Shown one piece after another: positions 4,888 to 22,691 of a stretch of 64,000 bases of DNA. The notes under the pieces were generated by a model. It made no database searches and had not been told where the DNA came from. It saw only the letters and a program-made list of their open reading frames with translations. The DNA is from Gammaproteobacteria bacterium (lineage in GTDB: Bacteria > Pseudomonadota > Gammaproteobacteria > SZUA-140): NCBI GenBank assembly GCA_026982565.1, contig JALSGV010000044.1:8506-72505 (forward strand). Direction: 5' to 3'. Numbering within the stretch: position 1 is the first letter of the stretch; every line of letters starts with the position of its first letter. The translations under genes were made by a program, and so were the position numbers.

Positions 4888-5874
4888 TCAGTGTTTGCCG
4901 GGAAACAGGGACAGGGCCGCCGCGATGACATCCTTGGCGGAGGGTATGGCCGCCTTTTCCAGCTTGTGATTGTAGGGGATGGGCACATTGGCGGCGGAGA
5001 CGCGCACCGGCGGCGCATCCAGCTCGAAAAAGCATTCCTCGTTGAAGATGGCCATCACCTCGGCGCCCACCCCGACGGGGGCCTCGGCCTCCTCGGCGAT
5101 GATGGCCTTGTGGGTGCGGGCGACGGAGGCCTTGATGCCCTCGCGGTCCAGAGGGCTGAGCGCATAGAGATCCACCACCTCGGCCTCGATGCCGTGCTCC
5201 CTGGACAGCACTTCGGCGGCCTGCAGGCACCAGTGTACGGAGATGTTGTAGCCGAACAGGGTGATGTCACGTCCCTGTCTGACCACCTCGGAGCCTTCCA
5301 GGGGATGGAAGAATTCCTCGTCGGGCACCTCGCCCTTCATGTTGTACATGAGTTCGTGCTCGTTGATGAACACGGGATCGGCGCAGCGCACCGCCGATTT
5401 CAGCAGGCCATAGGCCTGTTTCGGGTTGGAGGGCGTCACCACGCGCAGCCCGGCGATGCCCATGAACACCTTCTCCATGCGCGCGGAGTGCTGGGCGCCC
5501 AACTGATGGGCGGTGCCGCCCGGCGAGCGGATGACGATGGGCGCCGTGAGCTGGCCGCCGGACATGTAACGCACCTTGGCGGCGGTGTTGACGATCTGGT
5601 CCGTGGCCAGCCAGGCGAAGTTCACCGACATGATCTCGATGATGGGCTTGACGCCCACGAAAGAGGCGCCGATGCCCAGGCCGGTGTAGCCGTTCTCGCT
5701 GATGGGCGTGTCGATGACCCGCTCCGCGCCGTACTTGTCGTACAGCCCCTGCGTGGCCTTGTAAGTGCCACCGGCCACGCCGATGTCCTCGCCCATGACA
5801 ATGACCAGGGGGTCATTGCCCAATTCCTCATCGTGGGCGCGGCGCAGCGCCTCCCAATACATCATCTGTGACAT
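4888..5874 (-). CDS. pdhB: Pyruvate/2-oxoacid dehydrogenase E1 component beta subunit (transketolase-like)
   Basis: 328 aa. Typical E1-beta N-terminus (YWEALRRAHDEELGNDPLVIVMGEDIG...YGAERVIDTPISENG). The start overlaps the pdhA stop by 1 nt, suggesting translational coupling. Confidence 0.9.
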   Translation of the reverse strand: MSQMMYWEALRRAHDEELGNDPLVIVMGEDIGVAGGTYKATQGLYDKYGAERVIDTPISENGYTGLGIGASFVGVKPIIEIMSVNFAWLATDQIVNTAAKVRYMSGGQLTAPIVIRSPGGTAHQLGAQHSARMEKVFMGIAGLRVVTPSNPKQAYGLLKSAVRCADPVFINEHELMYNMKGEVPDEEFFHPLEGSEVVRQGRDITLFGYNISVHWCLQAAEVLSREHGIEAEVVDLYALSPLDREGIKASVARTHKAIIAEEAEAPVGVGAEVMAIFNEECFFELDAPPVRVSAANVPIPYNHKLEKAAIPSAKDVIAAALSLFPGKH

Positions 5875-6923
5875 TAGTTGACTCCACCGTGTACATAGGG
5901 ATCGTTTTCGGCCAGCACATACTTCTCCAGATCCTCCACCCTGGGCTCCGGGGACTGCTCGGCGAAACCGATCACTTCATTTTCAATCTCTTCGATAATG
6001 GCCTTGTCCATTTCCTTGAACTCGCTCAGGGTCAGATCCCGGGAGTCGATGAGGCGGTTGCGCAGGATGTGGATGGGATCGCGCTTGAGCCACTTGCTCT
6101 CTTCGTCCTTGGAACGGTAGGCGTTGGAATCGGACATGGAATGGCCGCGGTAGCGGTAGGTCATCAATTCCAAAAAATAAGGCCCGTTGCCGGACCTTAC
6201 GTGTTCGATCGCCTTTTTGGCCGCCGCATACACCACCTCCACGTCCTGACCGTCCACCTGGACGGCGGGAATATCGTAGGCGGCGGCGCGCTTGTACTGA
6301 TCCTGAACCGCCGTGGAGCGGTCGATGCGGGTGCCGATGCCGTAGAGATTGTTTTCACACACATAGAGCACGGGCAGATCCCAGATCTTGGCCATGTTCA
6401 GGGACTCGTGAAAGGTGCCCTGGTTGTTGGCGGCATCGCCCAGAAAACAAATGGAGATCTCGTCCCCGCCCTTCATCTTGAGGCCCTTGGCGATGCCCAC
6501 CGCCAGCGGAAACGGGCCGCCCACCAGGGCATAACCGCCCATGAAACGGTGCGCCACGTCGAAGATGTGCATGGAACCGCCACGGCCCTTGCAGGTGCCG
6601 CCCTCCTTGCCGAACAACTCCGCCATGACCGCGCGCGGATCGGATCCGCACTTGATGGCGTGGATATGGTCGCGGTAGCTGGTCATGACATAGTCATGGC
6701 CGATGCGCGCGGCTTCGAGCACGCCATGGGCGCACGCCTCCTCGCCGGAATAGAGATGCAGGAACCCGCCGATCTTGCGCTCCACGTAGGCCTCGTAACA
6801 TCTTTCCTCAAAACGCCGGGCGTAGAGCATTTCGCGCAGCAGCCGCTTTTTGTCCGTCACGCTGAGCAGTTCACTGTCGTTCTCCGCCACACCCTGTTGT
6901 GCAAAACCTGGCATTACTTTCAT
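5874..6923 (-). CDS. pdhA: Pyruvate/2-oxoacid dehydrogenase E1 component alpha subunit (TPP-dependent)
   Basis: E1-alpha signatures (YRFEERCYEAY...GFLHLYSGEEA; YRYRGHSMSD). The start is placed at the internal MKVMPG Met (6923-6921), preceded by GAAGGATGG Shine-Dalgarno. The ORF-track start at 7028 adds a non-conserved 35-aa extension. Confidence 0.85.
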   Translation of the reverse strand: MKVMPGFAQQGVAENDSELLSVTDKKRLLREMLYARRFEERCYEAYVERKIGGFLHLYSGEEACAHGVLEAARIGHDYVMTSYRDHIHAIKCGSDPRAVMAELFGKEGGTCKGRGGSMHIFDVAHRFMGGYALVGGPFPLAVGIAKGLKMKGGDEISICFLGDAANNQGTFHESLNMAKIWDLPVLYVCENNLYGIGTRIDRSTAVQDQYKRAAAYDIPAVQVDGQDVEVVYAAAKKAIEHVRSGNGPYFLELMTYRYRGHSMSDSNAYRSKDEESKWLKRDPIHILRNRLIDSRDLTLSEFKEMDKAIIEEIENEVIGFAEQSPEPRVEDLEKYVLAENDPYVHGGVN

Positions 6924-7113
6924 AAGCCATCCTTCTGTTATTTCGTGTATGAAAAATCTGTCGATTTGGTTACGATGAACGGCCTGGCCACCCCCGGTTT
7001 CGTTATATTTTTGCGGTATGGCCGGCAAAAACCCATCATCTTTGGCCCGCTATCATCAGCTTTTTTGGCTACCAGGTCAAGAATATACCACACAATAAGA
7101 AAGGTTATTAGAC

Positions 7114-8598
7114 GTGAAAATCCATTTGAAACACCGCGCGGACCTGCCCACGCAGGCGGAACTCGACAAGATCAGCAACCTCATCATTTTGCTGCCGGAA
7201 CGGGACACATCTGCGCCCTGGCCCGCCTTTCCATTCATGAAAATTATTAGAAACAGGCTTAAAATCACTGATTCAAAAATAAATTCCAAATCGGCGATAA
7301 CGACCGACTTGCCCAACGAGGCAGGCACGCGGACCACCCTGAGCACCCTCAGGGCCGAACTCACCACCCATGAACTGCTGCGCCTGGCGCGCAAGCACGC
7401 CGATGTCCATCTGGCGCAGAATCCCCGCGACGTCACCCTCATCATGCCGGGCATCCGCCAGCGGGCGCTGCGTCACCGCGCGGCCGAGGCCATGCTCGCC
7501 GCACTCCTCGCCGGAGCCGCCGCCATGCCCACCTGCAAGAGCGCCAAGCCCGGCAAAAAGCGCCTGCGCGCCGTCACCTGCCACGGCCTCGGCGATTCAT
7601 TCGACTACCGGCGCATCCAGGCCGAGTGCGCGGGCAACTCCCTGGCGCGGGAGCTGACGGCCCTGCCTCCGAACCTGCTGACGCCCCGCCTCTACCGCCA
7701 GCGCATCCGGCAACTGGCGCGCCAGCAGGGCTGGACAATGCGCTTCCTGAACCACAAGGCCCTGGAGAAGGAAAACGCCGGCGCCTTCCTGGCCGTGGCC
7801 CAGGGCAGCCCGGACAAGGACGCCGGCATGGTGCGCCTCAGCTATATTCCCGCGCGCGGCAAAAGCAGAAAGCCCCTCACCCTCGTCGGCAAGGGCATCT
7901 GCTACGACACGGGCGGCGTCAACCTGAAACCCGCCCGCCACATGCACGGCATGCACGAGGACATGCAGGGCAGCGCCGTGGCCCTGGGCGCCCTCCTCGC
8001 CCTGAGCCAGCTCAAGGTCCCGTTTCCCGTGCACTGCTGGCTCGCCCTGGCGCAGAACCACATCGGTCCCAGGGCCTACAAACAGAACGACGTCGTCACC
8101 GCCAGCAACGGCACCACCATCGAAGTGATGCACACGGACGCCGAAGGGCGCATGGTGCTGGCCGACACCCTGGCCCTGGCGGCCCGTGACAAGCCCGCCC
8201 TGATGATCGACTACGCCACCCTGACGGGGTCCTGCGTCTACGCCCTCGGCACCCGCTACAGCGGCGCCTTCACCAACCGGGACAGCTATATTCCAACCCT
8301 CATCGCGGCGGGAAAGCACAGTGGCGAACGGGTGTGGCCTTTCCCCCTCGACGAAGATTACGAAGAAGCCCTGGAGAGCAAAATCGCCGACATCAAACAA
8401 TGCACCCTGGATGGCGAGGCGGATCACATCATCGCCGCGCGCTTTCTGCAGCGCTTCGCGGGCAAGGGCCCCTGGATCCACATCGATCTGGCCGCAGGCA
8501 ATCACAAAGGGGGGCTGGGTCACATTCCCACGGACTACACGGGCTTCGGGGTGCGATTCACACTCAATCTGCTCCTCGACCAAAAGATCATGGAATGA
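7114..8598 (+). CDS. M17-family (leucyl/cytosol) aminopeptidase-like protein
   Basis: 494 aa. C-terminal M17 catalytic domain (LVGKGICYDTGGVNLKP...HTDAEGRMVLADTLA..., compare the NTDAEGRL signature). Divergent from the pdh operon. Confidence 0.75.
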   Translation: MKIHLKHRADLPTQAELDKISNLIILLPERDTSAPWPAFPFMKIIRNRLKITDSKINSKSAITTDLPNEAGTRTTLSTLRAELTTHELLRLARKHADVHLAQNPRDVTLIMPGIRQRALRHRAAEAMLAALLAGAAAMPTCKSAKPGKKRLRAVTCHGLGDSFDYRRIQAECAGNSLARELTALPPNLLTPRLYRQRIRQLARQQGWTMRFLNHKALEKENAGAFLAVAQGSPDKDAGMVRLSYIPARGKSRKPLTLVGKGICYDTGGVNLKPARHMHGMHEDMQGSAVALGALLALSQLKVPFPVHCWLALAQNHIGPRAYKQNDVVTASNGTTIEVMHTDAEGRMVLADTLALAARDKPALMIDYATLTGSCVYALGTRYSGAFTNRDSYIPTLIAAGKHSGERVWPFPLDEDYEEALESKIADIKQCTLDGEADHIIAARFLQRFAGKGPWIHIDLAAGNHKGGLGHIPTDYTGFGVRFTLNLLLDQKIME

Positions 8599-8610
8599 GG
8601 CCCGGCGCCG

Positions 8611-8624
8611 TACTATAGTATAAT
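8611..8624 (+). promoter_or_regulatory. Candidate hicBA promoter -10 (TATAAT, 8619-8624) overlapped by a perfect 10-bp palindrome TACTATAGTA (8611-8620), a possible autoregulatory operator
   Basis: Seen directly in sequence. It lies 29 nt upstream of the hicB ATG. AAAGGA Shine-Dalgarno precedes the start. Confidence 0.35.
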
Positions 8625-8652
8625 GGGAAGGTAATCAGACAAAGGATTAGCC

Positions 8653-8865
8653 ATGAAAAACGAATTCACTGCGGTGATAAAGCAGGAAGCGGATTGGTGG
8701 ATAGGGTGGATTGAAGAGGTCCCAGGTGTCAATTGCCAGGAAAAAACCTATGAGGAATTGAGACAAACCTTGGAGCTTACGCTAAAAGAAGCCCTGGAAC
8801 TGAACCGGCAGGACGCTCTGACCGCCGCCGGCAGTGGCTACAAGGAAGAAAAAATCGCGCTATGA
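8653..8865 (+). CDS. hicB: HicB-family antitoxin (small UPF0150-type)
   Basis: 70 aa; FTAVIKQEADWWIGWIEEVPGVNCQEKTYEELRQTLELTLKEALEL matches the short HicB/UPF0150 pattern. Immediately followed by a HicA-like gene. Confidence 0.7.
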   Translation: MKNEFTAVIKQEADWWIGWIEEVPGVNCQEKTYEELRQTLELTLKEALELNRQDALTAAGSGYKEEKIAL

Positions 8866-8871
8866 TCTCCA

Positions 8872-9060
8872 ATGAGGAGAAGTAAACTTCTCAAGCATCT
8901 GCGCAATCACGGATGCGCGCTTTTGAGAGAAGGCGCAAAGCACTCCTGGTGGCATAACCCAGCATTGAACAAGCGCTCCGCAATTCCACGCCATTCCGAA
9001 ATAAAGGATATTCTGGCCAATAAAATTTGCAAAGACCTCGGAGTTGAAACTTTCAAATGA
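8872..9060 (+). CDS. hicA: HicA-family mRNA interferase toxin
   Basis: 62 aa; LLKHLRNHGCALLREGAKHSWWHNPALNKRSAIPRHSEIKDILANKICKDLGV matches the HicA consensus (L..L...GC...R.G..H.....P......T.PRH.EI......KI..DLG). Confidence 0.75.
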   Translation: MRRSKLLKHLRNHGCALLREGAKHSWWHNPALNKRSAIPRHSEIKDILANKICKDLGVETFK

Positions 9061-9117
9061 CGGCAAACACAGCGTTATGCACTACCGCACATCACCCGGA
9101 ATAAAGAAGGAAACCCC

Positions 9118-10119
9118 ATGCCTGAAGAATCACCCTTAGTAGAGGCTCAAAAGCAATTCACCGCCGCCCTGCCCTTCCGCGCCATGCCCGGCGAAACCAT
9201 TCCCCTCGCTGAGGCCGCGGGCCGCATCCTCCATGAGGACCTGGTGGCGCCCGAGGCCATCCCGCCCTACCCGCGCGTCATCGTGGAAGGCTTTCTGGTC
9301 CATACGGCGGCCACCGAAGGGGCTGCGGAGGACTCGCCCGTCACGTTCGACATCGTCGGCGAAGTCATGCCCGGCGACAGCGCCTGCCCTGATTTTCTGC
9401 CGGGCCAGGCCCTGCGCGTGGCCACGGGCAGCATCGTGTCCGACCAGCCATTGTCCGTGGTGCGCATGTGGGAGGCCCGCGTTGAAGGACAGCAGGTCAC
9501 CATCACCCGCCCCTTCCCGCCGCGTTTCTTCATCGAGGAACAGGGCTGCGATATCCAGCAGGGCGCCACGGTACTGGAAGCAGGCAGCCGCCTCACCACC
9601 ATGGACATCGGCAACATCGCCAGCCTGGGCATCGACACACTCAGCGTGGCGCGCCGCCCACGTGTCACCGTATTCAGTTCCGGCGACGAGGTCATTCCCT
9701 ACACGGAGCCTATGAAGCCGGGCGCCATTCGTGACAGCAATTCCGTCATGCTGTGCGCCGCCATCGACGCGGCAGGGGGCGAAGCGGCCTTCGCCGGTAT
9801 CATGAAAGACGACTTCGACCACTTTGCCGCCACCCTGAAGCAGGCGCTGCAGGACGCCGACATGGCCGTGATCTCCGGCGGCACCGCCGTGGGCGGGCAG
9901 GACTTCATCTCCGACCTGCTGCGCGCCGTGGGGGAACTCATCGTGGACGGCGTGCCCATGCGCTCGGGGCGGCCCCTGATCATGGGCGTGGCGGAAGGCA
10001 AGCCCATCGTCTGTGTCGCCGGACACCCCCCCGAGGCCCTGCGCGGCTTCCGCCTCTTCGGCGTCGCGGCGCTGGACAGGATCACCGGCCACCAGGCCGG
10101 ACTGCCCGCGGACGACTGA
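9118..10119 (+). CDS. MoeA-family molybdopterin-binding protein (N-terminal and MoCF-biosynthesis domains; C-terminal MoeA_C domain absent)
   Basis: 333 aa. MoeA-like N-terminus (ETIPLAEAAGRILHEDLVAPEAIPPY) and MoCF domain (PRVTVFSSGDEV...GAIRDSNS...ISGGTAVGGQD). Ends about 70 aa short of a canonical MoeA. Confidence 0.6.
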   Translation: MPEESPLVEAQKQFTAALPFRAMPGETIPLAEAAGRILHEDLVAPEAIPPYPRVIVEGFLVHTAATEGAAEDSPVTFDIVGEVMPGDSACPDFLPGQALRVATGSIVSDQPLSVVRMWEARVEGQQVTITRPFPPRFFIEEQGCDIQQGATVLEAGSRLTTMDIGNIASLGIDTLSVARRPRVTVFSSGDEVIPYTEPMKPGAIRDSNSVMLCAAIDAAGGEAAFAGIMKDDFDHFAATLKQALQDADMAVISGGTAVGGQDFISDLLRAVGELIVDGVPMRSGRPLIMGVAEGKPIVCVAGHPPEALRGFRLFGVAALDRITGHQAGLPADD

Positions 10120-11167: not shown

Positions 11168-11804
11168 AGGGGACGCCGGAAAACCGCGCCTCGCCACCCG
11201 CTTCCGCGGCTACATGCCCGTGGTGGTGGACGTTGAAACCGGCGGTTTCGACGCGCGCAAGGACGCCCTCCTGGAAATCGCCACCGTCCTGCTCAACATG
11301 GATGAGGAAGGCCGCCTGTCGCGGGGGGAAACCATTGCATTTCACGTGGAACCCTTCGAGGGCGCCAATCTGGATCCCAAGTCCCTGGCCTTCACGGGCA
11401 TCGACCCCTACCACCCCTTCCGTTTCGCCGTTCCCGAGATGGAGGCCATGCGCAAGACATTCCAGGCCATCCGCACGGCCCAGAAAGAGGCCGGCTGCAA
11501 CCGCACCATCCTGGTGGGCCACAACCCCGGCATGGACCTGGCCTTCGTCAATGCCGCGGCGCAACGCTGCAATCTCAAGCGCAACCCCTTCCATCCCTTC
11601 AGCACCTTCGACACCGCCTCCCTGGCGGGCGTGGCCTACGGCCAGACCGTGCTGGCGCGCGCCGTGCAGGCGGCGGGACTGCCGTGGGACAATGACAGGG
11701 CGCACTCCGCCATCTACGACGCCGAAGTGACCGCCGACCTGTTCTGCGCCATCGTCAACGCCTGGGATGAGTGCCGGAAAAAAGGGGGGCGGGAAAAGGA
11801 TTGA
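11157..11804 (+). CDS. rnt: Ribonuclease T
   Basis: 215 aa; [28 protein letters not shown]...[10 protein letters not shown]...[11 protein letters not shown]...[18 protein letters not shown] is near-collinear with E. coli RNase T. Overlaps the pyrC stop. Confidence 0.95.
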
Positions 11805-12367
11805 GCCCTCACCCCTTCCAGAGGGTGTCGCAAAAGCCCCTCTCCCGCCGGAGGGTGTTGTAAAAGGTCTTTGCCACTCAATCGCCCCAGCAGCACACCG
11901 GGTAACTGGCTGACATCCACCGGCGGCATGAAGTGGCCCCGGTTCGCCTGCCAGCAGCGGCTGGCCGGGAAGATCGTGCGCCACCACCGGCGCCAACGGG
12001 CAAGCGTCTGTGGATAAAGATCGAGTTGCTCGATCAACTGCTGCCGACGCTTTGCGCTGAGACCATACTCCATGGCCGTCACCAGTATCACCAGGACACC
12101 CAGATAGACCTTGCGCCCGAGAAAACGCACCGATGGCGGGGTGCAGCGGCGCCGGCATCCCTCGGTGGCGCAACAAAAACTCAGGCGCCTCTCATAGGTC
12201 TCATCCAGTGCACAACGGATACCCCGGGGCTTGCGTGGATAATGGGCTACATGCAGCGTACTGCCACAATGAGCGCAGCCTTCTGATTGAGCCTCGTCGG
12301 CGATTTCCTGATCAATACGAAAGAGAAACTGATAAAATCTGGAATCATTGAAAAATGCATGACACAC
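11714..12367 (-). CDS. Cys-rich hypothetical protein (putative zinc-ribbon; CxxC...CC...C); the 3' end reads through the REP element and overlaps the rnt 3' end
   Basis: 217-aa ORF; [19 protein letters not shown]...[11 protein letters not shown]...[17 protein letters not shown] recall it as a conserved hypothetical family but cannot name it. It sits at the core/island junction, next to an AT-rich stretch. Confidence 0.4.
11811..11875. repeat. REP-like element copy 2 (degenerate; GAGGGTGTCG(C/T)AAAAG as two direct half-sites after a CCCTCACCCC leader)
   Basis: ccctcaccccttccaGAGGGTGTCGCAAAAGCCCCTCTCCCGCCGGAGGGTGTTGTAAAAGG; same family as 1551-1604. Confidence 0.6.
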
Positions 12368-12740
12368 TGGACTTGCCTCCTTTTTTCTTGGTCGAAAAAC
12401 AGGAGACAGCCCCCTTGGATAATTTTCAAGTTATTTGAGGGGGTTTTTCTTTATCCATCAGATAATGTGATCAAAAATCGGGGTAAATCCATCAATTATT
12501 CTGCTCACTCTCACAAGCAGCCGGGTACAGCGTGCGGGAAACTGATCCCTTCGAGACACCCGCACCGCCAGTAGCGATGACACGGGAACGCTTCACCAGG
12601 GTCAACCGCATTCTCCAATCTGGAAACCGCCTGAAAAACACGAAGACGAAAACGACCTTGCCGCTGGCCGGTAAAATTGCGGCAAGGCAACCCATCGAGG
12701 CCATCCCGGATCATGATACTTTGATCTGAGCGCTTTCTTA

Positions 12741-13058
12741 ATGGGTCCCAATCGCTTTGTACTTAAGGTACAAGGCGATTCCATGATCGAGGCTGGGATA
12801 CTTGATGGTGATATGGTCATCATTGAACAGCGGAATTGCGCAGGAAACGGTGACATCGTTGTCGCCCTGATCGACAGGGACGAAGCAACACTGAAATGTC
12901 TTCAGCAAAATGAGGATGGGACAGTTACATTATTTCCCGCCAACCAAACAATGCAGCCCATGAATTATTCAGCGGAGCGCATAGAAATTCAGGGCGTAGT
13001 CATAGGGCAAATGCGATCATACAATACTAACCAACATAGACGCGCCAACGAAAGGTAA
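12741..13058 (+). CDS. S24 (LexA/UmuD-type) peptidase catalytic-domain protein; probably the C-terminal part of a frameshifted LexA-like gene
   Basis: 105 aa; VLKVQGDSMIEAGILDGDMVIIEQ...GDIVVALIDRDEATLKCL...TLFPANQTMQP...IEIQGVVIG is the LexA/UmuD Ser-Lys peptidase core. The upstream out-of-frame ORF 12532-12729 ends ...LPLAGKIAARQPIEAIPDHDTLI, which looks like the LexA linker/cleavage-site region. Confidence 0.55.
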   Translation: MGPNRFVLKVQGDSMIEAGILDGDMVIIEQRNCAGNGDIVVALIDRDEATLKCLQQNEDGTVTLFPANQTMQPMNYSAERIEIQGVVIGQMRSYNTNQHRRANER

Positions 13059-13063
13059 CCAGA

Positions 13064-14218
13064 ATGCAGGAAGCAACACACTACAAAGGCAGGGAGCACA
13101 GCGGCATCAAGCACTATCTTCTTGAAAGCTACCTGGAAGTACTGTTCATGATAATTGGCCAACATGAACGAAGAATATGCTACGTCGATTGCTTTTCAGG
13201 CCCTTGGAACGAAGCGAACGAGAACCTGGCTGGCACATCGATCGCGCTATCTCTGAATGTTATGCGCAAATGCCGCAACAGCCTAAGAAAACTGGGTAAA
13301 TCCGTCGAGTTTCGAGCCCTGTTCATCGAGAAGGAAAAGCATGCCTATAAAAAGCTCAACGCCTATCTGAAAGAAACCCATATAGATGGCGTCACATCAG
13401 AGGCTAAAAATGGTGAATTCCTTGACTTGCGCCCTGAGATACTGAAGTGGTGTAGCCCCAATGACTTTGTATTTTTCTTTATTGATCCGAAAGGCTGGAA
13501 GAACGCTATTGAAATACCAACACTGTCACCCCTATTGCGGCGTCAGCGATCAGAATTCCTGATAAACTTTATGTACGACTTCTTGAATCGTGCCCTTACA
13601 CAGGAACAATTTCAGGAAGATATGAACTCAATATTTGGTGAAATACCAGACACATCAGGAATGACACCGAAGGAAAGGGAAGAGCACCTGATACAGAGAT
13701 ACCTGGATTGCCTCAGATCCGTACCTACTGACAATAAAGACAGGCTACGATCAGCATATGTAAGTATATTGGACCCTATCAAAGACAGGACAAAATATCA
13801 CCTTGTTTATCTTACTCGCCACCCCTTGGGTATCGTGAAATTTATGAATGCCTCGGAAAAAATAGATATCGTACAGAAACGGGTACGCGCCAAAACAAAA
13901 CAACAGCGAAGGATCGAATCGACGAGACAGGAGGAGTTATTCTTCGACGAACCCGATTCCAGCACCACAGATACCGTGGCTATGGAAAGCGTAAAACAAT
14001 ATTGGCTAGAGAAACTTGCTACTACACCACGAGCATACGGGATAGAAGAGCTTGCAGACATGCTGGAAGAGACAAATTGGTTCGAAACAAATTTACAGCA
14101 AGCATTCAATGAGCTTATAGAGGAAGGTAAAGTGGTGAATATTGATTCTCGCGGCAAACGCCCCAAAAGGCCCGTGCACTTTGACAAGAACGAACAATTG
14201 AAAAGGACAAAGCCATGA
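13064..14218 (+). CDS. TcmP-like protein (three-Cys-motif partner protein family, as I recall TIGR04474), paralogue 1
   Basis: 384 aa. The N-terminal block HSGIKHYLLESYLEVLF...RICYVDCFSGPW parallels HSLAKHRVYEEYLLHYI...LTLIDGFAGGGVY in the second paralogue, an FxGxG-like nucleotide-binding motif. Directly followed by a Gp37/Gp68 gene with a 4-bp overlap. Confidence 0.55.
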   Translation: MQEATHYKGREHSGIKHYLLESYLEVLFMIIGQHERRICYVDCFSGPWNEANENLAGTSIALSLNVMRKCRNSLRKLGKSVEFRALFIEKEKHAYKKLNAYLKETHIDGVTSEAKNGEFLDLRPEILKWCSPNDFVFFFIDPKGWKNAIEIPTLSPLLRRQRSEFLINFMYDFLNRALTQEQFQEDMNSIFGEIPDTSGMTPKEREEHLIQRYLDCLRSVPTDNKDRLRSAYVSILDPIKDRTKYHLVYLTRHPLGIVKFMNASEKIDIVQKRVRAKTKQQRRIESTRQEELFFDEPDSSTTDTVAMESVKQYWLEKLATTPRAYGIEELADMLEETNWFETNLQQAFNELIEEGKVVNIDSRGKRPKRPVHFDKNEQLKRTKP

Positions 14219-14970
14219 GTACGCAATCTTCTATTGAATGGACCGAACAGACGTGGAATCCGGTAACAGGATGCACGAAGATATCCCCTGGATGCAAACA
14301 CTGCTATGCCGAAACTATGGCGAGGAGGCTCGAGGCCATGGGTGTTCGTGGATATGAAAATGGTTTCAGCCTTACCCTACTTCCAGAACGCCTGGGTGAA
14401 CCTCTGAAGCGCAGGAAACCGACGGTATATTTTGTTAACTCGATGAGCGACCTGTTCCATGAGGAGATTCCGGATAGCTTTATCCAACAAGTCTTCGATA
14501 TCATCAGACAAACACCTCAACACACCTATCAAATCTTGACCAAACGTGCCTACAGGATGGCGGAATTCTTCGATCATTACACTGCACCTCGAAATGCCTG
14601 GCTTGGCGTTTCAGTCGAAGATAGAAGACACGGTTTACCAAGAATCAAAGCACTCCGTAAAATATCAGCACAGATTCGGTTCTTGTCCGTAGAACCATTA
14701 CTCGAGGATCTTGGGAAAATTGATTTGCGGGATATCCATTGGGTCATTGTCGGAGGCGAATCCGGACCGAAGGCCCGCCCAATGAAGCAAGACTGGGTAA
14801 TCAATGTTCAGCGCCAGTGCGAACAACAAAATGTTGCCTTCTTCTTTAAGCAATGGGGCGGCTGGGGAGCTGACGGCAAAAAACGGGCAAAGAAACAAAA
14901 TGGCAGGACGCTATTAGGAAAGACGTGGGATGAAATGCCGACGCCTACGCTAGGCAATCAGTTTTTATAA
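14215..14970 (+). CDS. Phage Gp37/Gp68-family (DUF5131) three-Cys-motif protein
   Basis: 251 aa; SIEWTEQTWNPVTGCTKISPGCKHCYAETMA is the family's characteristic N-terminal W...WNP.TGC...GC..CYA motif (C-x6-C-x2-C), followed by VEPLLEDLG...VIVGGESGP.ARPM...W. Confidence 0.75.
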   Translation: MSTQSSIEWTEQTWNPVTGCTKISPGCKHCYAETMARRLEAMGVRGYENGFSLTLLPERLGEPLKRRKPTVYFVNSMSDLFHEEIPDSFIQQVFDIIRQTPQHTYQILTKRAYRMAEFFDHYTAPRNAWLGVSVEDRRHGLPRIKALRKISAQIRFLSVEPLLEDLGKIDLRDIHWVIVGGESGPKARPMKQDWVINVQRQCEQQNVAFFFKQWGGWGADGKKRAKKQNGRTLLGKTWDEMPTPTLGNQFL

Positions 14971-14984
14971 ATATCACCCTGATA

Positions 14985-16340
14985 TTGATAGGAGTAATAG
15001 ATTTGCCAAAAAAGGAATATGATTGGCAGCTTGGCGAGGATCCCCCAAAGATTGAACTGCACAGCCTGGCTAAACATCGTGTTTACGAAGAATACCTCCT
15101 CCACTACATCCAGGTACTAAATTCTAATCCAAAGATTCCAAAATTTCGGCTAACACTGATAGACGGCTTCGCCGGCGGCGGCGTCTATCTCGACCCAAGA
15201 AACAATAGCCTATATACCGGGTCGCCACTGCGCCTTATCAAGGCGGCAGAAGCAGCGGCTTCTGCGGTAAATGTCAAACGGCAGCAAGGAGGGGTTCGTA
15301 ACCCTTTTGAACTACAGGCTGAGTATTTCTTCATTGAAAAGAAAAAGTCAAACCATGACTATCTGAACTGGTATCTGCGCGAACAGGGTTTGGGAGAACG
15401 CCTCAATAAGGATATCTTCTCATGGCCGGGTCAGTTCACAAAATTTCTGCCAACATTAATTAGCCGTATTAGCAGCAAAGGGAAAAGTCAACGGTGTATT
15501 TTTTTATTGGACCAATACGGTTATGGAGAAATCCCGTTTCCAGATATTCAAACAATTTTCGCAAAATTGCCCCATGCCGAGATCATATTGACCTTTGCTA
15601 CAGACTGGCTCATCGACTACATGTCAAACAAGCCAGAATATCTCAAAACTCTACAACGAATCGGGATCGCTCATGAGCTAGATATCGATCAATTATTGAA
15701 CTCCAAGAACGACACACCACAATGGCGACAACTAGTCCAATTTGAATTACATAAAGCCATTCCAAAACTCAGTGGCGCACTGCATTACACCCCCTTCTTT
15801 ATTGTGTCACCAGAGGCCAACCGCTCATTCTGGTTAATCCACCTTTCAAACCATCCGCGCGCGCGTGATGTAATGACACAATTGCATTGGCAGCTGAAGA
15901 ATCACTTCACACATTATGGCGGAGCTGGACTCCATATGTTTGGCTACGACCCGATGAAAGATGAACAACTGATCGGCGTGGCCGACATGTTTGGTAATAG
16001 TGAATTTTCCTTTGACAAGATTGCAAGAAAAAGAACTATCGAAGGGATAGTAGAAGAACTTCCACGGCTGATACACCGTTTCGCTGATGGAATTCGGTTT
16101 GATGAGTTCTACCGTTTAGTCGCTAACCAAACACCCGCTACGAGCGACCATATTCGAGAAGGCGCAAATCTATTGGCAGAGATTAAGGAGCTTGAAATTC
16201 TAGGCCCCAATGGAGAAAGACGGCGGAAAGCAAATACTATTACTAATCAAGATATTATTCGACCGCCTCAGCAAAAGACCCTCAGTTTTAGCAATAATGT
16301 GCCACTTGAAAGGAAAAACGAAAAAGCAACTAAAAAGTGA
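14985..16340 (+). CDS. TcmP-like protein, paralogue 2 (longer, C-terminal extension)
   Basis: 451 aa. Shares the HS..KH...Y...Y...D.F.G.G N-terminal architecture with the 13064-14218 product, and has a mid-region FLLDQYGYGEIPF like FFFIDPKGWKNAIEIP in paralogue 1. Confidence 0.55.
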   Translation: MIGVIDLPKKEYDWQLGEDPPKIELHSLAKHRVYEEYLLHYIQVLNSNPKIPKFRLTLIDGFAGGGVYLDPRNNSLYTGSPLRLIKAAEAAASAVNVKRQQGGVRNPFELQAEYFFIEKKKSNHDYLNWYLREQGLGERLNKDIFSWPGQFTKFLPTLISRISSKGKSQRCIFLLDQYGYGEIPFPDIQTIFAKLPHAEIILTFATDWLIDYMSNKPEYLKTLQRIGIAHELDIDQLLNSKNDTPQWRQLVQFELHKAIPKLSGALHYTPFFIVSPEANRSFWLIHLSNHPRARDVMTQLHWQLKNHFTHYGGAGLHMFGYDPMKDEQLIGVADMFGNSEFSFDKIARKRTIEGIVEELPRLIHRFADGIRFDEFYRLVANQTPATSDHIREGANLLAEIKELEILGPNGERRRKANTITNQDIIRPPQQKTLSFSNNVPLERKNEKATKK

Positions 16341-16361
16341 CACATGCAACATTCTCAATCA

Positions 16362-19067
16362 TCAATCTGATATTCGCGCAAAACGCTCAAAATCTTTCAA
16401 ATGCCGTGATTCATTGATCTCGTTATGGGGGATCAGCAGGTATTTCCATGGTTTCCCGCCATGTTTTTCCGCATATTCCGAAGCATGCCGACACCACTGG
16501 GCCGCTACCTCAGCTTTGGCCAACGCTTCCGAATCCTGCATGTCGGACTTGGCTTTGGTTTCCACCATATAAATCACACGATCCGTCTCGGCCACGAAAT
16601 CCGGCACGTATTCGGGCTGTTCCGCGCCGTGCTGGTAGTAGGTCTGGAACTGCCCCTTGACAGGCCGGAACCACTTTTCCACGTCGCGCTCCAGGATAAC
16701 GGCGAACCGTCGTTCGCTGTCTGAATCGAACTTTTGTAGTGGATAGAGGCATTTTTTGAACCCACCGAACAGCATCTGCTTGATCCGGCCTTTGTCATCC
16801 ACGGTTTCACGATAATTGCGAACCGGATGCTTTTCCGACGCCGTATAGTTGCAGGGCTTGAGCTGGGTGAATCCGCGGCTGACCTTGACCTCATATCCAG
16901 CCGCTTTTTCCCAGAAATGCTCCATCATCTGGGTATGAATATGCTCGCCGATAAGCCGTCGGTCACGGTCCAATACTGCCTGAGCCTCGTCCTTGGACAG
17001 ATAGCTCAACAGGTGTCGCACAACCTGTCCAGCCAGGTCGTAGAGCAAATCGGCATGTGCGGCATAGTCGATATCGTCGTAGTCAACCAGCGTGTATACG
17101 ACATAATCTTCGAGTCGCTGCTCAGTGATACCCACTTCCGAGGCCAGGGTCTCCTGCTCGTTGGTGCGCAAGTTCTGGATGATCAGCTCCCGATCCACAG
17201 GTTGCAGGTGCAGGCCGCTCAAATCCAGGGTAAAGGGATTGAAGCCCACGGTCACTTCTCCAGTTGGAACCACCGCAATTCGGGGAATATCGATAATCTT
17301 CCGGCTGACAATCTCGGTGGTCCTGGCCACGATCGTTTCCAGATCGACTGCCTCTTTCTCCAACAGCTCACCTTGCATAGGTGTCAGGCGTTCCTTGACC
17401 CGCTCCATGATGGCCTCACGCACATGGGGCTGGTTCAGGGCTGAACTGGTGGGCACCTTGTCATGCTGCTTTTCCAGTTCATGAATCACATCAAGCACCG
17501 CACGGGCCGCCTCCTTTTCCGCTTCCTGGGTGAATACTGGCGCTTCCAGACCTTCTGGCTTGATTTCATACTGTGTTCCACCCGCACTTGTTGCCTTGGG
17601 CTCAGCCAGCCCCAAGGCTTCCTCTGCAGTGGAACCCACGGTGATGCTGATCATCCCCTCGTCATCGTCCGGTGCTTCCAGAATCACCTGTTTGAGTCGG
17701 ATGGGCGAATCTCCCCGGTTGGCCTCGTCGATGATCTCCTGAAAGCGATCATGGGCGATGATATTGAGCCTATCCACCGCACTCGCGCCGGTACGTTTCC
17801 CGTAGGGCAATCGCAAGCCGCGGCCGATGGACTGTTCGATCAAGGTACGCGCATTGGCGGCACGCAACGGCACGATGGTGTAGAGATTGGTAACATCCCA
17901 GCCCTCCTTGAGCATGTTGACGTGGATCACGATCTCAGTCGGCTCCCCCTCGCTCTCCACGGCCAGCAGCCGCTCAATCATCTCCTCTTCCGCCTTGCCG
18001 GTCTTGCTGCTGTCCACCTGGATCACCTTGTCGCGGTAACGGCCCTCGAAGAAGGCCTCGGACTGAATCAACGCCAGTAACTGCGATGCATGCGTGGTAT
18101 CACGGGCGATCACGAGCACGAAGGGTTTGACCGTTTTTACGCTGTTCTGGCGCGCATAGGTCATCAGCTCCACCTTGGTAGCCTCGTGCACACGAATGCC
18201 GTCCTCCAGCTTGATCTTTTCGATCTCCTCCGGCGTATGGCGTTTGGCGTCGAAATCGCGTTGGGTAACTACTGCTGGCTCTTTGACGAAACCGTCCTCC
18301 ATGGCACGAGCCAGGGGATAATCCATCACCACGTTCTTGAACGGCACAGGCCCACGGTTGGATTCCACGAAGGGGGTCGCCGTCAGTTCCAGGCCAAACA
18401 GGGGTTTCAATTCATTGATGGCGCGCACCCCGGCGCTGGCGCGGTAGCGGTGCGACTCATCCATCAGCAGCACCAGATCGGGCAACTCGGCGAGATAATT
18501 GAAGTAGCTGTCCCCCAGGTACTCGGACAGGCGCTTGATACGGGGACTCTTGCCGCCACGCACCTCCGAGTTGATCTTGGAAATATTGAAAATGTTAATC
18601 ACGACAGGCGACAGCAGGCTCAGATTACCCGCGCGCTGTTCATAATTGTCCCCAGTGATGATCTCTGGTGGATAGGCAGCGAACTCGGCGATGCCCTTGA
18701 ACACATACTTGGGTGTGTTGGGGGTAAAGTCCGTGATCAACTTGTCGTAGATGGTCAGGTTCGGCGCCAGCACGAAAAAGTGCTTGAAGCCATGGGCCAG
18801 GTGCAGATAGCTGATAAAAGCCCCCATCAGGCGCGTCTTACCCACACCAGTGGCCAACGCGAAACACAGCGACGGAAACTCCCGCTCGAAATCCTCCAGC
18901 GTGGGGAACTCCGCCTTGAGGATATTTAGCACCGCCTCCAGATCGCGGTCATGGCTGCGCATATCCGGTGCAGTATCCAACGCCCTGGCCAATTTCTCCA
19001 GGGACTCGGCCTGGGGAGGGCGCAGTGACAACCGCCCCTTGATGGAATTCAACACGCGCAGATTCAT
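16362..19067 (-). CDS. res: Type III restriction-modification system restriction subunit (Res; SF2 helicase-like ATPase with C-terminal nuclease)
   Basis: 901 aa. Walker A LATGVGKTRLMG, motif II LVLLMDESHRY, motif III LELTATPF. The start overlaps the mod stop by 4 bp. Confidence 0.85.
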   Translation of the reverse strand: MNLRVLNSIKGRLSLRPPQAESLEKLARALDTAPDMRSHDRDLEAVLNILKAEFPTLEDFEREFPSLCFALATGVGKTRLMGAFISYLHLAHGFKHFFVLAPNLTIYDKLITDFTPNTPKYVFKGIAEFAAYPPEIITGDNYEQRAGNLSLLSPVVINIFNISKINSEVRGGKSPRIKRLSEYLGDSYFNYLAELPDLVLLMDESHRYRASAGVRAINELKPLFGLELTATPFVESNRGPVPFKNVVMDYPLARAMEDGFVKEPAVVTQRDFDAKRHTPEEIEKIKLEDGIRVHEATKVELMTYARQNSVKTVKPFVLVIARDTTHASQLLALIQSEAFFEGRYRDKVIQVDSSKTGKAEEEMIERLLAVESEGEPTEIVIHVNMLKEGWDVTNLYTIVPLRAANARTLIEQSIGRGLRLPYGKRTGASAVDRLNIIAHDRFQEIIDEANRGDSPIRLKQVILEAPDDDEGMISITVGSTAEEALGLAEPKATSAGGTQYEIKPEGLEAPVFTQEAEKEAARAVLDVIHELEKQHDKVPTSSALNQPHVREAIMERVKERLTPMQGELLEKEAVDLETIVARTTEIVSRKIIDIPRIAVVPTGEVTVGFNPFTLDLSGLHLQPVDRELIIQNLRTNEQETLASEVGITEQRLEDYVVYTLVDYDDIDYAAHADLLYDLAGQVVRHLLSYLSKDEAQAVLDRDRRLIGEHIHTQMMEHFWEKAAGYEVKVSRGFTQLKPCNYTASEKHPVRNYRETVDDKGRIKQMLFGGFKKCLYPLQKFDSDSERRFAVILERDVEKWFRPVKGQFQTYYQHGAEQPEYVPDFVAETDRVIYMVETKAKSDMQDSEALAKAEVAAQWCRHASEYAEKHGGKPWKYLLIPHNEINESRHLKDFERFARISD

Positions 19068-20857
19068 TGCTCTTCCTCCCCAAACAGGGCCACCTGTCCG
19101 GGTGCGGTTTTCTTCTTTGACTTCTTCTTAGGTACGGCTGGCTGTTCAGGTTCTGGCTCCAACATTGGGAGATTCTGTACGTTCAAGCTGTAGTCGTCAC
19201 GACCCCATTCGCAACGGGAAAGCACCACTTTGGGAATCTTCTTGATGGTGAGATTGGGCCAGCGCTCCGTCGCTTTTGCCGCGCTGATACCCCGGAAAGC
19301 GCTGCATAGTACCAGCAAGCTGCGGCCTTCACCCACCTCTTCCGCCAGGGCCTGCAACTGGCTCACCGACAGGTTCTGCGTGGTGACATAGATGAAATCC
19401 TGCTCCGTGGAATGGCCGTGCTGCCACCAGACGGTTTCCGACGGCGTATAGGTAAATCCCTCCAGCTTGCACAGCGCCTCGGCCAACATGGCAGCATTGT
19501 ATTCCTTATTGATGACCCAGTTACCCCACTTGTCCTTCTCCAGCAATGAAGGGGCCAGGCGGTAGTAACGGAAACCGCCGCCACCCTTCCACTCATAATT
19601 CTCACTAACTCCAGACTTATCATCCCCATCAATAACTCTCATTAATCTTGGAACTATATGTGTATATGCCTGTTCCCGTAATTCCACTGTAATCCATTTT
19701 CTACCCATTTTATGGGCCACGGCAGAAGTAGTGCCCGACCCACCAAAAGAGTCAAGCACAAGATCACCCGGTTTGGAAAAGTGTTTCAATATTAGCTCTA
19801 ATAGTTTTTCTGGCTTTTTTCCGCCCCGGAAATCCACACCACCTTCATGTCTACAATTACCAAAACTACCAGCCAGATCGAAGAAATTTTGGATTGGTTT
19901 TGCTTTATCCGCCTTCCCTTCTTTTATAGCACTTAATGTTTTCAACGGTATACCTGAGTAAAATTTACCTTTTGTGGCTGTAGATTTTTTTGGACCCGTC
20001 ATGTAACGGTAACCCAATCCATCCTCACCTATTCCATAGACTTTATATAAACATGATAATCCATCTATTTTTTTTCTAGGAGCTAAGTACTTATCAAGAA
20101 ACTCTCCTGAACTTCCAGACTGCCGAACCAAAGACCCTGTTGCCCACGTCTCCTTTAACCCTGTTAAGGATGGCTCTATTTTCTTGATTTCGTATTCTCC
20201 AGGCTTAAATAACACCACCTTCTTTCCACCCAACTCTAGCTCTTCACCATCTGATTTTTCAATTATCATCCATTCAAATTTTTCAATCTTGTAGGGTTCT
20301 TTATCTTTATTCGCCTTCGCCAAATTGCGATCCTTTGCATAGATAAAGCACTGCTCAATTACTTTTTGGTAATCGTTATCTTCTGCAAGAGTTTTATGGC
20401 CATATCTAACTTGAACATAAAATGTCGTTAAATAGTTCGATCTTCCAAAGATCTCATCTAGCAACACTTTAAGATATGCACCTTCACCATCATCTATTTG
20501 ACAACAAAAAAAACCATCATCTGAAAGCAGTCGCCTAAGAGATTCCAAACGATCTCTCATCAAAGATAACCATATTGAGTGCTCTATTCCATCATCGTAG
20601 TTTTCAAAAGCATTTCCGGTATTGTATGGAGGATCGATATAGATACACTTCACCTTGCCCGTAAACTCCTGCTCCAGCGCCTTCAGCGCCAGCAGGTTGT
20701 CACCGAAGATCAGGCGATTGTCGAAAATGTCGTTCTCCGTCACCCGATGCTTGGCGTAATACGACTTATCCGGATCTTCCAGCAGAATCCGCGGTTCCAG
20801 CTTCGGCCGCTTGTCCTTTCCTATCCAGGTGAGTTCCAGTTTTTGTTTCTTGGCCAT
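19064..20857 (-). CDS. mod: Type III restriction-modification system methyltransferase subunit (Mod; beta-class N6-adenine MTase)
   Basis: 597 aa. Motif IV IYIDPPYNTGNAF, motif I VLDSFGGSGTTSAVA near the C-terminus, and a central variable TRD. AT-rich compared with its surroundings. A8/T8 homopolymers at 20506-20513 and 20068-20075. Confidence 0.9.
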   Translation of the reverse strand: MAKKQKLELTWIGKDKRPKLEPRILLEDPDKSYYAKHRVTENDIFDNRLIFGDNLLALKALEQEFTGKVKCIYIDPPYNTGNAFENYDDGIEHSIWLSLMRDRLESLRRLLSDDGFFCCQIDDGEGAYLKVLLDEIFGRSNYLTTFYVQVRYGHKTLAEDNDYQKVIEQCFIYAKDRNLAKANKDKEPYKIEKFEWMIIEKSDGEELELGGKKVVLFKPGEYEIKKIEPSLTGLKETWATGSLVRQSGSSGEFLDKYLAPRKKIDGLSCLYKVYGIGEDGLGYRYMTGPKKSTATKGKFYSGIPLKTLSAIKEGKADKAKPIQNFFDLAGSFGNCRHEGGVDFRGGKKPEKLLELILKHFSKPGDLVLDSFGGSGTTSAVAHKMGRKWITVELREQAYTHIVPRLMRVIDGDDKSGVSENYEWKGGGGFRYYRLAPSLLEKDKWGNWVINKEYNAAMLAEALCKLEGFTYTPSETVWWQHGHSTEQDFIYVTTQNLSVSQLQALAEEVGEGRSLLVLCSAFRGISAAKATERWPNLTIKKIPKVVLSRCEWGRDDYSLNVQNLPMLEPEPEQPAVPKKKSKKKTAPGQVALFGEEEQ

Positions 20858-20866
20858 GATTTACCT

Positions 20867-21427
20867 TTAGAGTGGTTGCGTGAGAGCAGCCATCATCGAA
20901 TTCTTCACTGTTTGCACGTCGGTCTGATTTTCGAAAATTGCCCTTGGCTGTTTGTTCCAGGTGTTCGCCTTTATAACATTGATCAATTCATTCGCAATGG
21001 TGTCGATCGCCACCGAGATTCGCTTTTTCTCATCGTCGGTCAGCGCCAAATCGCCACTCCAGCGCAACTGAGTCTTCAGTAATAGTATATGCAGAATCAG
21101 CCATTTTCCGTGCCGAAGGATTTCGCCATCTTCCTGAGATTCACCTTTGGCACGATCGATGATCGTTTTCTGAACAATGCGGCTTATCTGTACGACACGC
21201 CATAGTTCCCTGGCTGTCAAAGCATCCGAAAAAAGGCGTTCATACGCCTCATCCAATGGCGATCCCGTTGCGGACAGGTCCGGCCGTCTGAACAACCGCT
21301 TTTGATCTTTCTTTGCCGCCACAACAAAGGCAGGCCAGGAGCTGGCTGTTTCGCAACATGCCAGAGCGGGTGCGGCCTCACGAACGCTGAAGACTGCATC
21401 CGATAACGAGGGGGTCATTGTCGCCAT
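20867..21427 (-). CDS. Hypothetical protein (no recognisable domain) downstream of the AIPR gene, overlapping it by about 50 bp
   Basis: 186-aa ORF in the same orientation as AIPR and mod-res. Coding status is uncertain. Confidence 0.35.
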   Translation of the reverse strand: MATMTPSLSDAVFSVREAAPALACCETASSWPAFVVAAKKDQKRLFRRPDLSATGSPLDEAYERLFSDALTARELWRVVQISRIVQKTIIDRAKGESQEDGEILRHGKWLILHILLLKTQLRWSGDLALTDDEKKRISVAIDTIANELINVIKANTWNKQPRAIFENQTDVQTVKNSMMAALTQPL

Positions 21428-22691
21428 GCTTATACAGATACTCGATACCCGTTATAGCCAGTGTCTGTCGCCACGTTTCCTGGCGTTCATCCAGCGCCGA
21501 GAAATCCTCAAGGTCAACCGCGTTCTGGCGGTTACGGTACTGGGTTACCCGTTTGCCAAACTCATCGGGTGCTTGGTCAAGAGAGATGAATGTAACCAGC
21601 ACCTCGGCGGGATGGTCGTCGAAATAGGCTGCATTTTGCTCTGCAATGGTACCAACAGTTTGTGCGCCATTGATGATGGAAATATCACGGACTCGAAAAC
21701 GTCCTTGCTGCCGATCTTGTTGAATCGGCGGTAGCTGCTGAATACTTGAGCAGAGAAATGTCACTCCATTGTTGAAATAGAAGAAATGATCCCATTCTTC
21801 CTGCAAAGTTTTCGCCATGCCGTCATTGACAACAGTCGAGCCCTTGAATCTCCGTATATTTTTCTCGACTATGCGGTCGCCATACTGCTGCTCCAAATTA
21901 GCGAGGTTTTTTGCCGACATTCGCCCATAGAAACCTCGGTACGGGCTTTCAATATAGCCAAAATCGAGCAGATTGACTTCAGTATCTATGGGTTGAGCCG
22001 CTTGATCGTCCAGTTGAAATCCATGGAGGCTTGTCAGCCCTCGCGAATAGCAGCGAAGAAAATCGGGCACCGTAGCATTGTATGTATGTTCGAGGTCTGA
22101 GAATATGTTTCTGCGGTCATCTGATATTGCTCCCCCGGTGTGAGCAAGAACGACTTTGACTCGGTGACCTTCATCTGCCAGGGCGCTTTCAATGGCATGT
22201 CTTTTCTCGTTCAGAGCCTCATTGAAGCGGTCGTATTTTCCAGCCAGAAGATCCACGACACCATCCTTGAACTTGGATACATCCCCCAGGTCAGGTTCAC
22301 CTCTCCCGCTGGAGATATATTTGGATTGAATCAACCATAGTGTTCCGTCCGCGCCAATATAAACAGAATCGATGCCGTGATCGTCACCGCCATCGATGCA
22401 GGCAGCAACGGCTTCTTCTTGAGTGGCCCCTGCTTCATGAGTTAGCACAAAGGCTGCGATAGCTTTGGATAGAAAATTGTTTCGTCGTGCGTCATCATTC
22501 GCACCAATACCTGTAATTAATGCACCAAACTCATTGTCCAATGACTCAGTCAAAAGCCTTAGTTCAAGTGGCGTTCCTTGTGGTGGCATTTTCACGATTC
22601 CCGGATTTCGTAACAAAACAATACCCTGCATTTCCTCTAGCTTGGCTTTGTCAATGGATGCAAACGACGTGTTTCGCCTACCGTTGCCCAA
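21378..22691 (-). CDS. AIPR-family abortive-infection-like protein (restriction-endonuclease-like N-terminal region plus AIPR domain)
   Basis: 437 aa. N-terminal HGIDSVYIGADGTLWLIQSKY (Mrr-cat-like D...QxK) and C-terminal AIPR hallmark ISIINGAQTVGTI (NGxQT). The true start may be the internal Met at 22631, which would remove the 55-bp overlap with the upstream ATPase. Confidence 0.7.
   Translation of the reverse strand: MGNGRRNTSFASIDKAKLEEMQGIVLLRNPGIVKMPPQGTPLELRLLTESLDNEFGALITGIGANDDARRNNFLSKAIAAFVLTHEAGATQEEAVAACIDGGDDHGIDSVYIGADGTLWLIQSKYISSGRGEPDLGDVSKFKDGVVDLLAGKYDRFNEALNEKRHAIESALADEGHRVKVVLAHTGGAISDDRRNIFSDLEHTYNATVPDFLRCYSRGLTSLHGFQLDDQAAQPIDTEVNLLDFGYIESPYRGFYGRMSAKNLANLEQQYGDRIVEKNIRRFKGSTVVNDGMAKTLQEEWDHFFYFNNGVTFLCSSIQQLPPIQQDRQQGRFRVRDISIINGAQTVGTIAEQNAAYFDDHPAEVLVTFISLDQAPDEFGKRVTQYRNRQNAVDLEDFSALDERQETWRQTLAITGIEYLYKHGDNDPLVIGCSLQRS

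Follow-up and report, generated by a model that had tools for sequence, protein, structure and literature searches.

A putative radical-SAM protein of the DUF5131 family flanked by two unlike three-Cys-motif partners in a gammaproteobacterial genomic island

A 64,000-nt stretch of contig JALSGV010000044.1, from a gammaproteobacterium of the SZUA-140 lineage (hereafter the window), carries at positions 13064-16340 three intact open reading frames (ORFs) on the forward strand, which encode a three-Cys-motif partner (TcmP), a DUF5131/Gp37Gp68 protein, and a second TcmP. The locus is a rare arrangement that sets two partners of different subfamilies, each bearing a winged helix-turn-helix (wHTH) domain, beside a single enzyme gene and behind a decayed repressor gene. 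The underlying pair already has a name: TcmP is defined as the partner of a three-Cys protein, and PADLOC lists the two families as candidate systems PDC-M30 and PDC-M41 because of their defence-island setting, the PDC systems being unvalidated 'guilt-by-embedding' candidates (PMC10855318). As in those systems, the two families lie here adjacent, translationally coupled and in a defence island, whereas in the window one DUF5131 gene stands between partners of only 21% identity and the repressor is a pseudogene. The locus adds an arrangement and no new principle. The literature searched contained no characterisation of the function of TcmP, DUF5131, PDC-M30/M41 or the GMT-wHTH domain, in agreement with a preliminary description of this DNA, made from its letters alone, which stated that no function is established for the pair. 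We propose, as an evenly balanced call, that the module would be a two-subunit system dependent on S-adenosylmethionine (SAM) that modifies nucleic acid, most likely DNA, in phage-host conflict.

Family membership and layout of the trio

We assessed the three proteins with curated profiles. The middle protein matched PF07505 (DUF5131) over model positions 1-243 of 243 with 369.1 bits (E=1.3e-110; gathering score, 28.9 bits), and the upstream and downstream proteins scored 104.7 and 205.2 bits with TIGR04474 (TcmP), both passing its curated cut-off of 53 bits. PADLOC models PDC-M30B and PDC-M41B recovered the same DUF5131 protein (E=1.3e-116 and 9e-115), and the A component was matched by the upstream TcmP (PDC-M30A, E=3e-14) and by the downstream one (E=7e-19). 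Judged on sequence, these matches are strong and far beyond chance. They bear out the family assignments of the preliminary description, and the flanking proteins fall in TcmP and in no unrelated, characterised family. Both carry a GMT-like wHTH domain (PF22560) at the C-terminus, which spans residues 284-361 in the upstream copy. The WNP.TGC-x6-C-x2-CYA motif proposed for the middle protein reads W14-N-P-V-T-G-C20-x6-C27-x2-C30-Y-A, with C20, C27 and C30 all present. Similarly, the HS..KH and D.F.G signatures ascribed to the flanking proteins occur in both, but the last Gly of the proposed motif is a Trp in the upstream copy (DCFSGPW).

The genes are tightly packed. The DUF5131 start overlaps the stop of the upstream TcmP gene by 4 nt, at the ATGA (14215-14218) already pointed out from the sequence, and the gap between the DUF5131 stop and the downstream TcmP gene is 14-32 nt, depending on the start chosen. 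The longest ORF for the latter extends over 14985-16340 (451 aa); the TTG at 15003 appears the more likely start because an AGGAG (14990-14994) lies 8 nt upstream, and the corresponding 445-aa product is called in two public assemblies. This gene has its own strong ribosome-binding site and begins 32 nt past the DUF5131 stop, a spacing as in native pairs. A promoter scan over 12200-16500 returned 7 candidates against 7.5 expected from shuffles, and hence no enrichment. Coordinates of the trio and its surroundings are compiled in Table 1.

Table 1. Positions of the trio, the repressor remnant and the neighbouring island genes in the window
Feature	Positions	Strand	Remarks
lexA-like pseudogene, linker/self-cleavage-site fragment	12631-12720	+	tblastn with the LexA-like protein of locus L004: residues 71-100, frame +1, 70% identity
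lexA-like pseudogene, S24 half	12720-13058	+	78% identity to residues 101-212 of the L004 LexA-like protein, frame +3
TcmP, 'short' subfamily	13064-14218	+	384 aa; predicted RlmJ-like methyltransferase-fold core and C-terminal wHTH; motif I DCFSGPW, motif IV DPKGW
DUF5131/Gp37Gp68	14215-14970	+	251 aa; predicted radical-SAM-fold subunit; C20-x6-C27-x2-C30
TcmP, 'long' subfamily	15003-16340	+	445 aa; predicted RlmJ-like core and C-terminal wHTH; motif I DGFAGGG, motif IV DQYGY
Type III res	16362-19067	opposite to trio	
Type III mod	19064-20857	opposite to trio	
186-aa unknown protein, AIPR/AbiU-like protein (437 aa), LmuB-like SMC/AAA ATPase (772 aa)	20867-24955	-	AIPR and ATPase ORFs overlap
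DrmD-like SNF2 helicase (954 aa), then PDC-S01 (AAA_14 + DUF4143)	25145-29331	-	PADLOC DrmD E=1e-198; PDC-S01 E=3e-168

Predicted folds and conserved residues

The preliminary description had suggested structure prediction as a check for a radical-SAM-like or methyltransferase fold, and prediction returned one of each. The DUF5131 model adopts a radical-SAM fold with a partial TIM-barrel core, closest to spore photoproduct lyase (SPL), which indicates, at the level of a model, that the protein has the radical-SAM core fold. RadicalSAM.org likewise lists DUF5131 as a subgroup of the radical-SAM superfamily (PMC9477430). The family is large (39,557 representatives at 50% identity), and among 62 diverse members C27 and C30 never vary and C20 is conserved in at least 90%. 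Searches of PDB sequences with phmmer and with profile hmmsearch yielded no match for DUF5131 or for TcmP. SPL (PDB 4fhc), the top structural match, is a radical-SAM DNA repair enzyme with only 15% identity; DUF5131 differs from it in being ~90 residues shorter, in its Cx6Cx2C spacing, in its dependence on a separate partner protein, and in lacking a lesion-repair context. Also among the structural matches are the radical-SAM enzymes RlmN/Cfr, which modify adenine in nucleic acid, and prokaryotic viperins, which act in antiviral defence. These are single-protein enzymes with the canonical CX3CX2C motif, whereas DUF5131 would combine a minimal 250-aa core with an obligatory partner of methyltransferase fold. 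In sequence, DUF5131 resembles TIGR04471, 'radical SAM mobile pair protein A' (E=4e-28, residues 12-213), which is likewise defined as half of a mobile two-gene pair; however, the match is sub-threshold (98 bits against a cut-off of 355), so that the window protein is no member, and the partner family differs. A further relative, P0358 (711 aa), carries DUF5131 followed by a weak FGase-like region.

The TcmP models combine an RlmJ-type class-I methyltransferase fold with a C-terminal winged helix. RlmJ, the 23S rRNA A2030 N6-methyltransferase (PF04378), was the best structural match by two methods, and we assign the TcmP core to the RlmJ-type fold on these predictions. In sequence, a broad TcmP profile aligned with RlmJ at 86.5% probability (E=4.6e-6), pairing motif I, GSP, the motif II acid and the motif IV Asp, which upholds the earlier suggestion of a SAM-binding-like motif in the flanking proteins; the RlmJ sequence in this alignment was verified against 4blu. 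Only the broad profile worked: hhalign with narrow TcmP-long or TcmP-short profiles against RlmJ reached no significance, and the RlmJ homologue search gave only relatives of 83-99% identity, which added little profile depth. PF04378 itself matched none of the window proteins and none of 101 TcmP-long members, even at E<=10. TcmP resembles RlmJ in predicted fold and aligns with it at motif I (DxFAGxG and DTHAGAG, respectively). It differs in its motif IV (DQYGY or DPKGW), in the extra C-terminal wHTH, and in being mobile and always linked to a radical-SAM gene, whereas RlmJ is a housekeeping enzyme. Across 115 TcmPs from four groups, the equivalents of RlmJ K18 and D164, the D-x-F-x-G of motif I and two acidic positions are universal, the motif II acid being among the universal positions. 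K18 corresponds to the N-terminal ..KH motif of TcmP, and both K18 and D164 are reportedly important for RlmJ according to its structure paper.

The two window TcmPs are very different proteins. Alignment gave 21% identity over 277 residues, and the subfamilies to which they belong, here termed 'short' (~385 aa) and 'long' (~420-445 aa), are each large (1376 homologues for TcmP-short and also more than 1300 for TcmP-long). TcmP-short always has a Trp at the third Gly of motif I and DPKGW at motif IV, and TcmP-long always has DQYGY; both window copies are full-length and retain every residue invariant in their subfamily. In-situ duplication of TcmP was considered and is ruled out by the low identity and by membership in two separate subfamilies. 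The expression 'duplicated partner' used for this locus is accordingly misleading, for each subfamily is normally paired with its own DUF5131, and the sequences mark the two as ancient paralogues. A third and commonest TcmP type (~285-310 aa) comprises the core only; though it lacks a wHTH, it genuinely belongs to TIGR04474.

Gene linkage, fusions and a decayed repressor

Linkage of the two families was scored with an iterated TcmP profile in 80 reference-genome loci from many phyla. TcmP adjoins DUF5131 in 71 of them, upstream in 47 and downstream in 24, with neither side occupied in 9 and both sides in none; the co-occurrence on which the preliminary description hinged is therefore the rule. 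A partner accompanies 26 of the 81 DUF5131 genes on 80 viral contigs; the others mostly encode longer, solo phage-type proteins. None of ~175 other DUF5131 loci has a TcmP gene directly on both sides. TcmP-short lies 5' of DUF5131 with overlapping stop and start in loci L004, L005, L007 and L181-L183, and TcmP-long usually lies 3' of it (L002, L006, L008-L012, L087-L091). The closest metagenomic relatives of the window TcmP-long (58-71% identity) sit in plain DUF5131-TcmP-long pairs. A second TcmP, of the core-only type, occurs in 8 of ~30 TcmP-long loci (L008, L009, L010, L012, L014, L023, L096, L097), with the order TcmP-small, LexA-like, DUF5131, TcmP-long on one strand in L008 and L009; such loci recur independently, so that the window is not alone in having a second partner. 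Among 15 TcmP-short loci, only the window has one.

The window DUF5131 is closest to that of L004, with 78% identity in its N-terminal half and 79% in its C-terminal half. As a possible origin of the trio, recombination inside this gene between pairs of the two types, short and long, was also tested by comparing the two halves and by identity in sliding windows of 40 aa. The gene showed no chimerism and is L004-like throughout; only its last ~10 residues have a likeness to long-type tails, too weak to be used. Two observations concern other TcmP-long loci. In L016 (Methyloversatilis universalis, 6753-9143) TcmP-long is split by an inserted element, whose 385-aa ORF has a second copy just 5' of DUF5131 (4576-5733). 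In L002 (Anatilimnocola sp., 5447-6955) a 502-aa protein with no Pfam match is encoded ~220 nt 5' of DUF5131-TcmP-long on the same strand, and could be an additional module gene.

Gene fusions join the families more directly. One protein (P0281) fuses DUF5131 to TcmP, and two others of ~515 aa (P0253, P0255) carry ParB_N-HTH_ParB at the DUF5131 N-terminus. Because of these fusions, the pair is probably a two-subunit enzyme acting on nucleic acid, with DNA favoured.

Directly upstream of the trio lies a remnant of a LexA-like repressor. The called ORF (12741-13058, 105 aa) contains a Peptidase_S24 domain only (E=6e-24), and TIGR00498 (LexA) matches it over positions 114-201 only. With the LexA-like protein of L004 as query, tblastn recovered the linker and the S24 half in different frames, with a frameshift at the linker, and residues 1-70, which form the helix-turn-helix (HTH) part, had no match anywhere upstream. 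The Ser (GDSM) and Lys (TLKC) motifs of the catalytic dyad are retained in the S24 half, and the scissile Ala-Gly has become Ala-Arg (KIAARQP). A full-length LexA-like repressor (205-212 aa, HTH + S24) is encoded directly 5' of TcmP-short in L004, L181 and L183; because it holds the same place there, the sequences identify the remnant as the cassette's own repressor, now a pseudogene. What had been described as an unusual S24 remnant thus corresponds to the regular first gene of the cassette in close relatives. LexA-like repressors also lie directly 5' of DUF5131 in L008, L009 and L012, and at least six loci, covering three TcmP types, have one at the head of the cassette.

The control region upstream of the repressor gene was compared as well. 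A promoter/operator-like element, CTATAGT...GAGAAC-N5-GAGAAC, is conserved 5' of the repressor gene in L004, L181 and L182 and is absent from the window; a search for SOS-box-like palindromes upstream of the lexA-like genes found none. In L182 (4675-4923), an 82-aa ORF with LexA_DNA_bind only (E=1.6e-4) still stands behind GAGAAC-N5-GAGAAC, a mirror image of the window remnant. At the start of the S24 ORF in the window (12750-12780), we also noted a 13-nt inverted repeat, AATCGCTTTGTAC / GTACAAGGCGATT, with 92% complementarity and a 5-nt spacer.

Genomic setting, proposed mechanism and alternatives

The trio lies in a low-GC island of ~12.3-29.4 kb that follows the host genes pyrC and rnt, with a regional GC content of 0.41-0.51 as compared with 0.60-0.70 in the flanking host genes. 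Type III restriction-modification (R-M) genes, res and mod, are directly downstream, so the defence-island setting named at the outset holds. Beyond them, a three-gene set looks, by its sequence, like a composite abortive infection (Abi)/Lamassu-type system, and a DrmD-like helicase gene has no other DISARM genes nearby. No tRNA gene was found at the island edge or elsewhere in the 64-kb window. A 217-aa Cys-rich ORF (CAHCGS...; 11714-12367, minus strand) that ends at the left edge of the island shares 90 nt with the 3' end of rnt; it has no Pfam or PADLOC match, and the ENA assembly likewise calls it as a gene. At the junction of host-like and island DNA (12408-12445), a T-run follows a strong hairpin of 16-17 bp, which may serve as a terminator or as a boundary element of the island. 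Outside the island, a 62-aa HicA toxin ORF (8872-9060, plus strand; PF07927, E=3e-8) is embedded between host metabolic genes. A minority of other loci also have R-M genes immediately next to the pair, as does L005, with HTH-TcmP-DUF5131-mod-res on one strand. The pair of Gordonia phage Easley is bounded by the integrase gene on one side and the immunity repressor gene on the other, and the DUF5131 genes that occur solo in phages have DNA-metabolism genes around them (Dam, RuvC, PAPS-reductase-like).

In the mechanism that we propose, DUF5131 would be the catalytic radical-SAM subunit, its three Cys holding a [4Fe-4S] cluster that would cleave SAM to a 5'-deoxyadenosyl radical. TcmP would be an RlmJ-like subunit binding SAM and a flipped-out base, probably adenine, and in two of three clades it would bring a winged-helix DNA-binding domain. 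It would thereby select and present the target, and may also methylate it. The pair could then install or process an unusual base modification that marks self DNA or disables invader DNA. The window locus would represent a LexA-type cassette (lexA-like, TcmP-short, DUF5131), in this lineage originally under SOS-type control and now lacking its native promoter and the HTH part of its repressor, joined by a downstream partner of the other major type. Since TcmP-long lies directly 3' of this cassette, one radical-SAM subunit plausibly serves two targeting subunits. A DNA substrate is supported, as far as sequence can tell, by the ParB-DUF5131 fusions, the wHTH domains of both window TcmPs and the LexA-like repressors at the head of cassettes; a role in conflict is supported by the island content, R-M neighbours elsewhere, the phage Easley locus and the PADLOC listing. 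We regard a bolder version as unlikely, namely that one minimal radical-SAM enzyme works with two interchangeable wHTH-bearing TcmPs and that its radical chemistry on DNA hypermodifies or damages specific sites in an immune or epigenetic role.

Several observations weigh against this proposal. Cluster binding, SAM cleavage, complex formation, the DNA substrate, the chemistry and the defence phenotype, and with them all steps of the mechanism, are what we infer. The Cys spacing of DUF5131 departs from canonical CX3CX2C; this is no bar to membership, since non-canonical spacings are known in the radical-SAM superfamily. Methyl transfer by TcmP is uncertain because motif IV is DQYGY or DPKGW instead of canonical DPPY and because TcmP-short has a Trp at the third motif-I Gly. 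The closest solved TcmP relatives are RNA methyltransferases (RlmJ, Trm1), and core-only TcmPs without a wHTH make up 49 of 115 members, more than any other type. Ordinary metabolic genes surround many of the pairs (L002, L003), and only a minority of immediate neighbours match defence models. At the window itself, the native promoter/operator of the cassette is gone, and the trio is not found in any close relative of either TcmP and may be an accident of island assembly.

This last point has a specific form, in which a LexA-TcmP-short-DUF5131 cassette and a TcmP-long stripped of its own DUF5131 became adjacent through island shuffling, so that the enzyme works with a single partner, the other gene being stranded or decaying. 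Such a history, which is orthogonal to the chemistry, is a serious contender that we nevertheless hold somewhat doubtful. The lack of any other locus with TcmP directly on both sides, the plain pairs and plain LexA-type cassettes in which the closest TcmP-long and TcmP-short relatives are found, the damage already done to the 5' end of the cassette through a pseudogene repressor and a lost promoter, and the L004-like character of DUF5131 over its whole length all speak for it. Conversely, neither TcmP bears signs of decay in its length or its subfamily-invariant residues, TcmP-long starts behind its own strong ribosome-binding site at a native spacing, and two-TcmP loci recur independently among those of the long type.

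The remaining alternatives concern what the enzyme acts on. If the substrate were rRNA or tRNA, the module would modify a base of the translation machinery, for instance as an abortive-infection switch or a resistance-like modification, by analogy with RlmJ (m6A2030) and with RlmN/Cfr (radical C-methylation of A2503). The presence of RlmN and Cfr among the DUF5131 matches, the core-only TcmPs devoid of a DNA-binding domain and the label 'RNA methyltransferase' given to DUF5131 by phage annotators are in its favour, yet the ParB-DUF5131 fusions, the wHTH domains in two TcmP clades, the top match to the DNA enzyme SPL, LexA-like control together with R-M neighbours, and the placement of solo phage genes in DNA metabolism make it unlikely. 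Less probable still is SOS-induced DNA repair, with an SPL-like enzyme reversing a specific lesion and TcmP as the lesion-flipping or recognition subunit. It would account for LexA-like repressors with intact S24 at the head of at least six cassettes, but the module occurs patchily and in mobile settings (defence islands, prophage lysogeny regions, beside R-M), unlike a core-genome function, most loci lack a LexA-like gene, LexA/CI-like repressors are also common on mobile elements, and the likeness to SPL is at fold level only. We deem a viperin-like small-molecule system very improbable, in which DUF5131 would make a chain-terminating or toxic nucleotide analogue and TcmP would methylate or sense a small ligand: the ParB and TcmP-wHTH associations point to polymer substrates, TcmP keeps RlmJ residues of the base-flipping type, and neither a nucleotide kinase nor any other partner that handles nucleotides is conserved in the module.

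Among the large branches of the radical-SAM superfamily that await characterisation is DUF5131, which in cellular genomes nearly always occurs linked to TcmP. The predicted folds, the fusions and the recurrent LexA-type switch lead to a concrete, testable hypothesis, that of two-subunit radical-SAM modification of nucleic acid on mobile elements, which makes the TcmP-DUF5131 family a worthwhile target. If the pair were a defence or DNA-marking system, radical chemistry on DNA would join the known immune repertoire, and the bolder version would, if true, represent a mechanistically new class of such systems, in which a change of TcmP partner swaps the target specificity of defence or DNA modification. 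Whether target specificity resides in TcmP is a question for which the two-partner locus described here is a natural test case.

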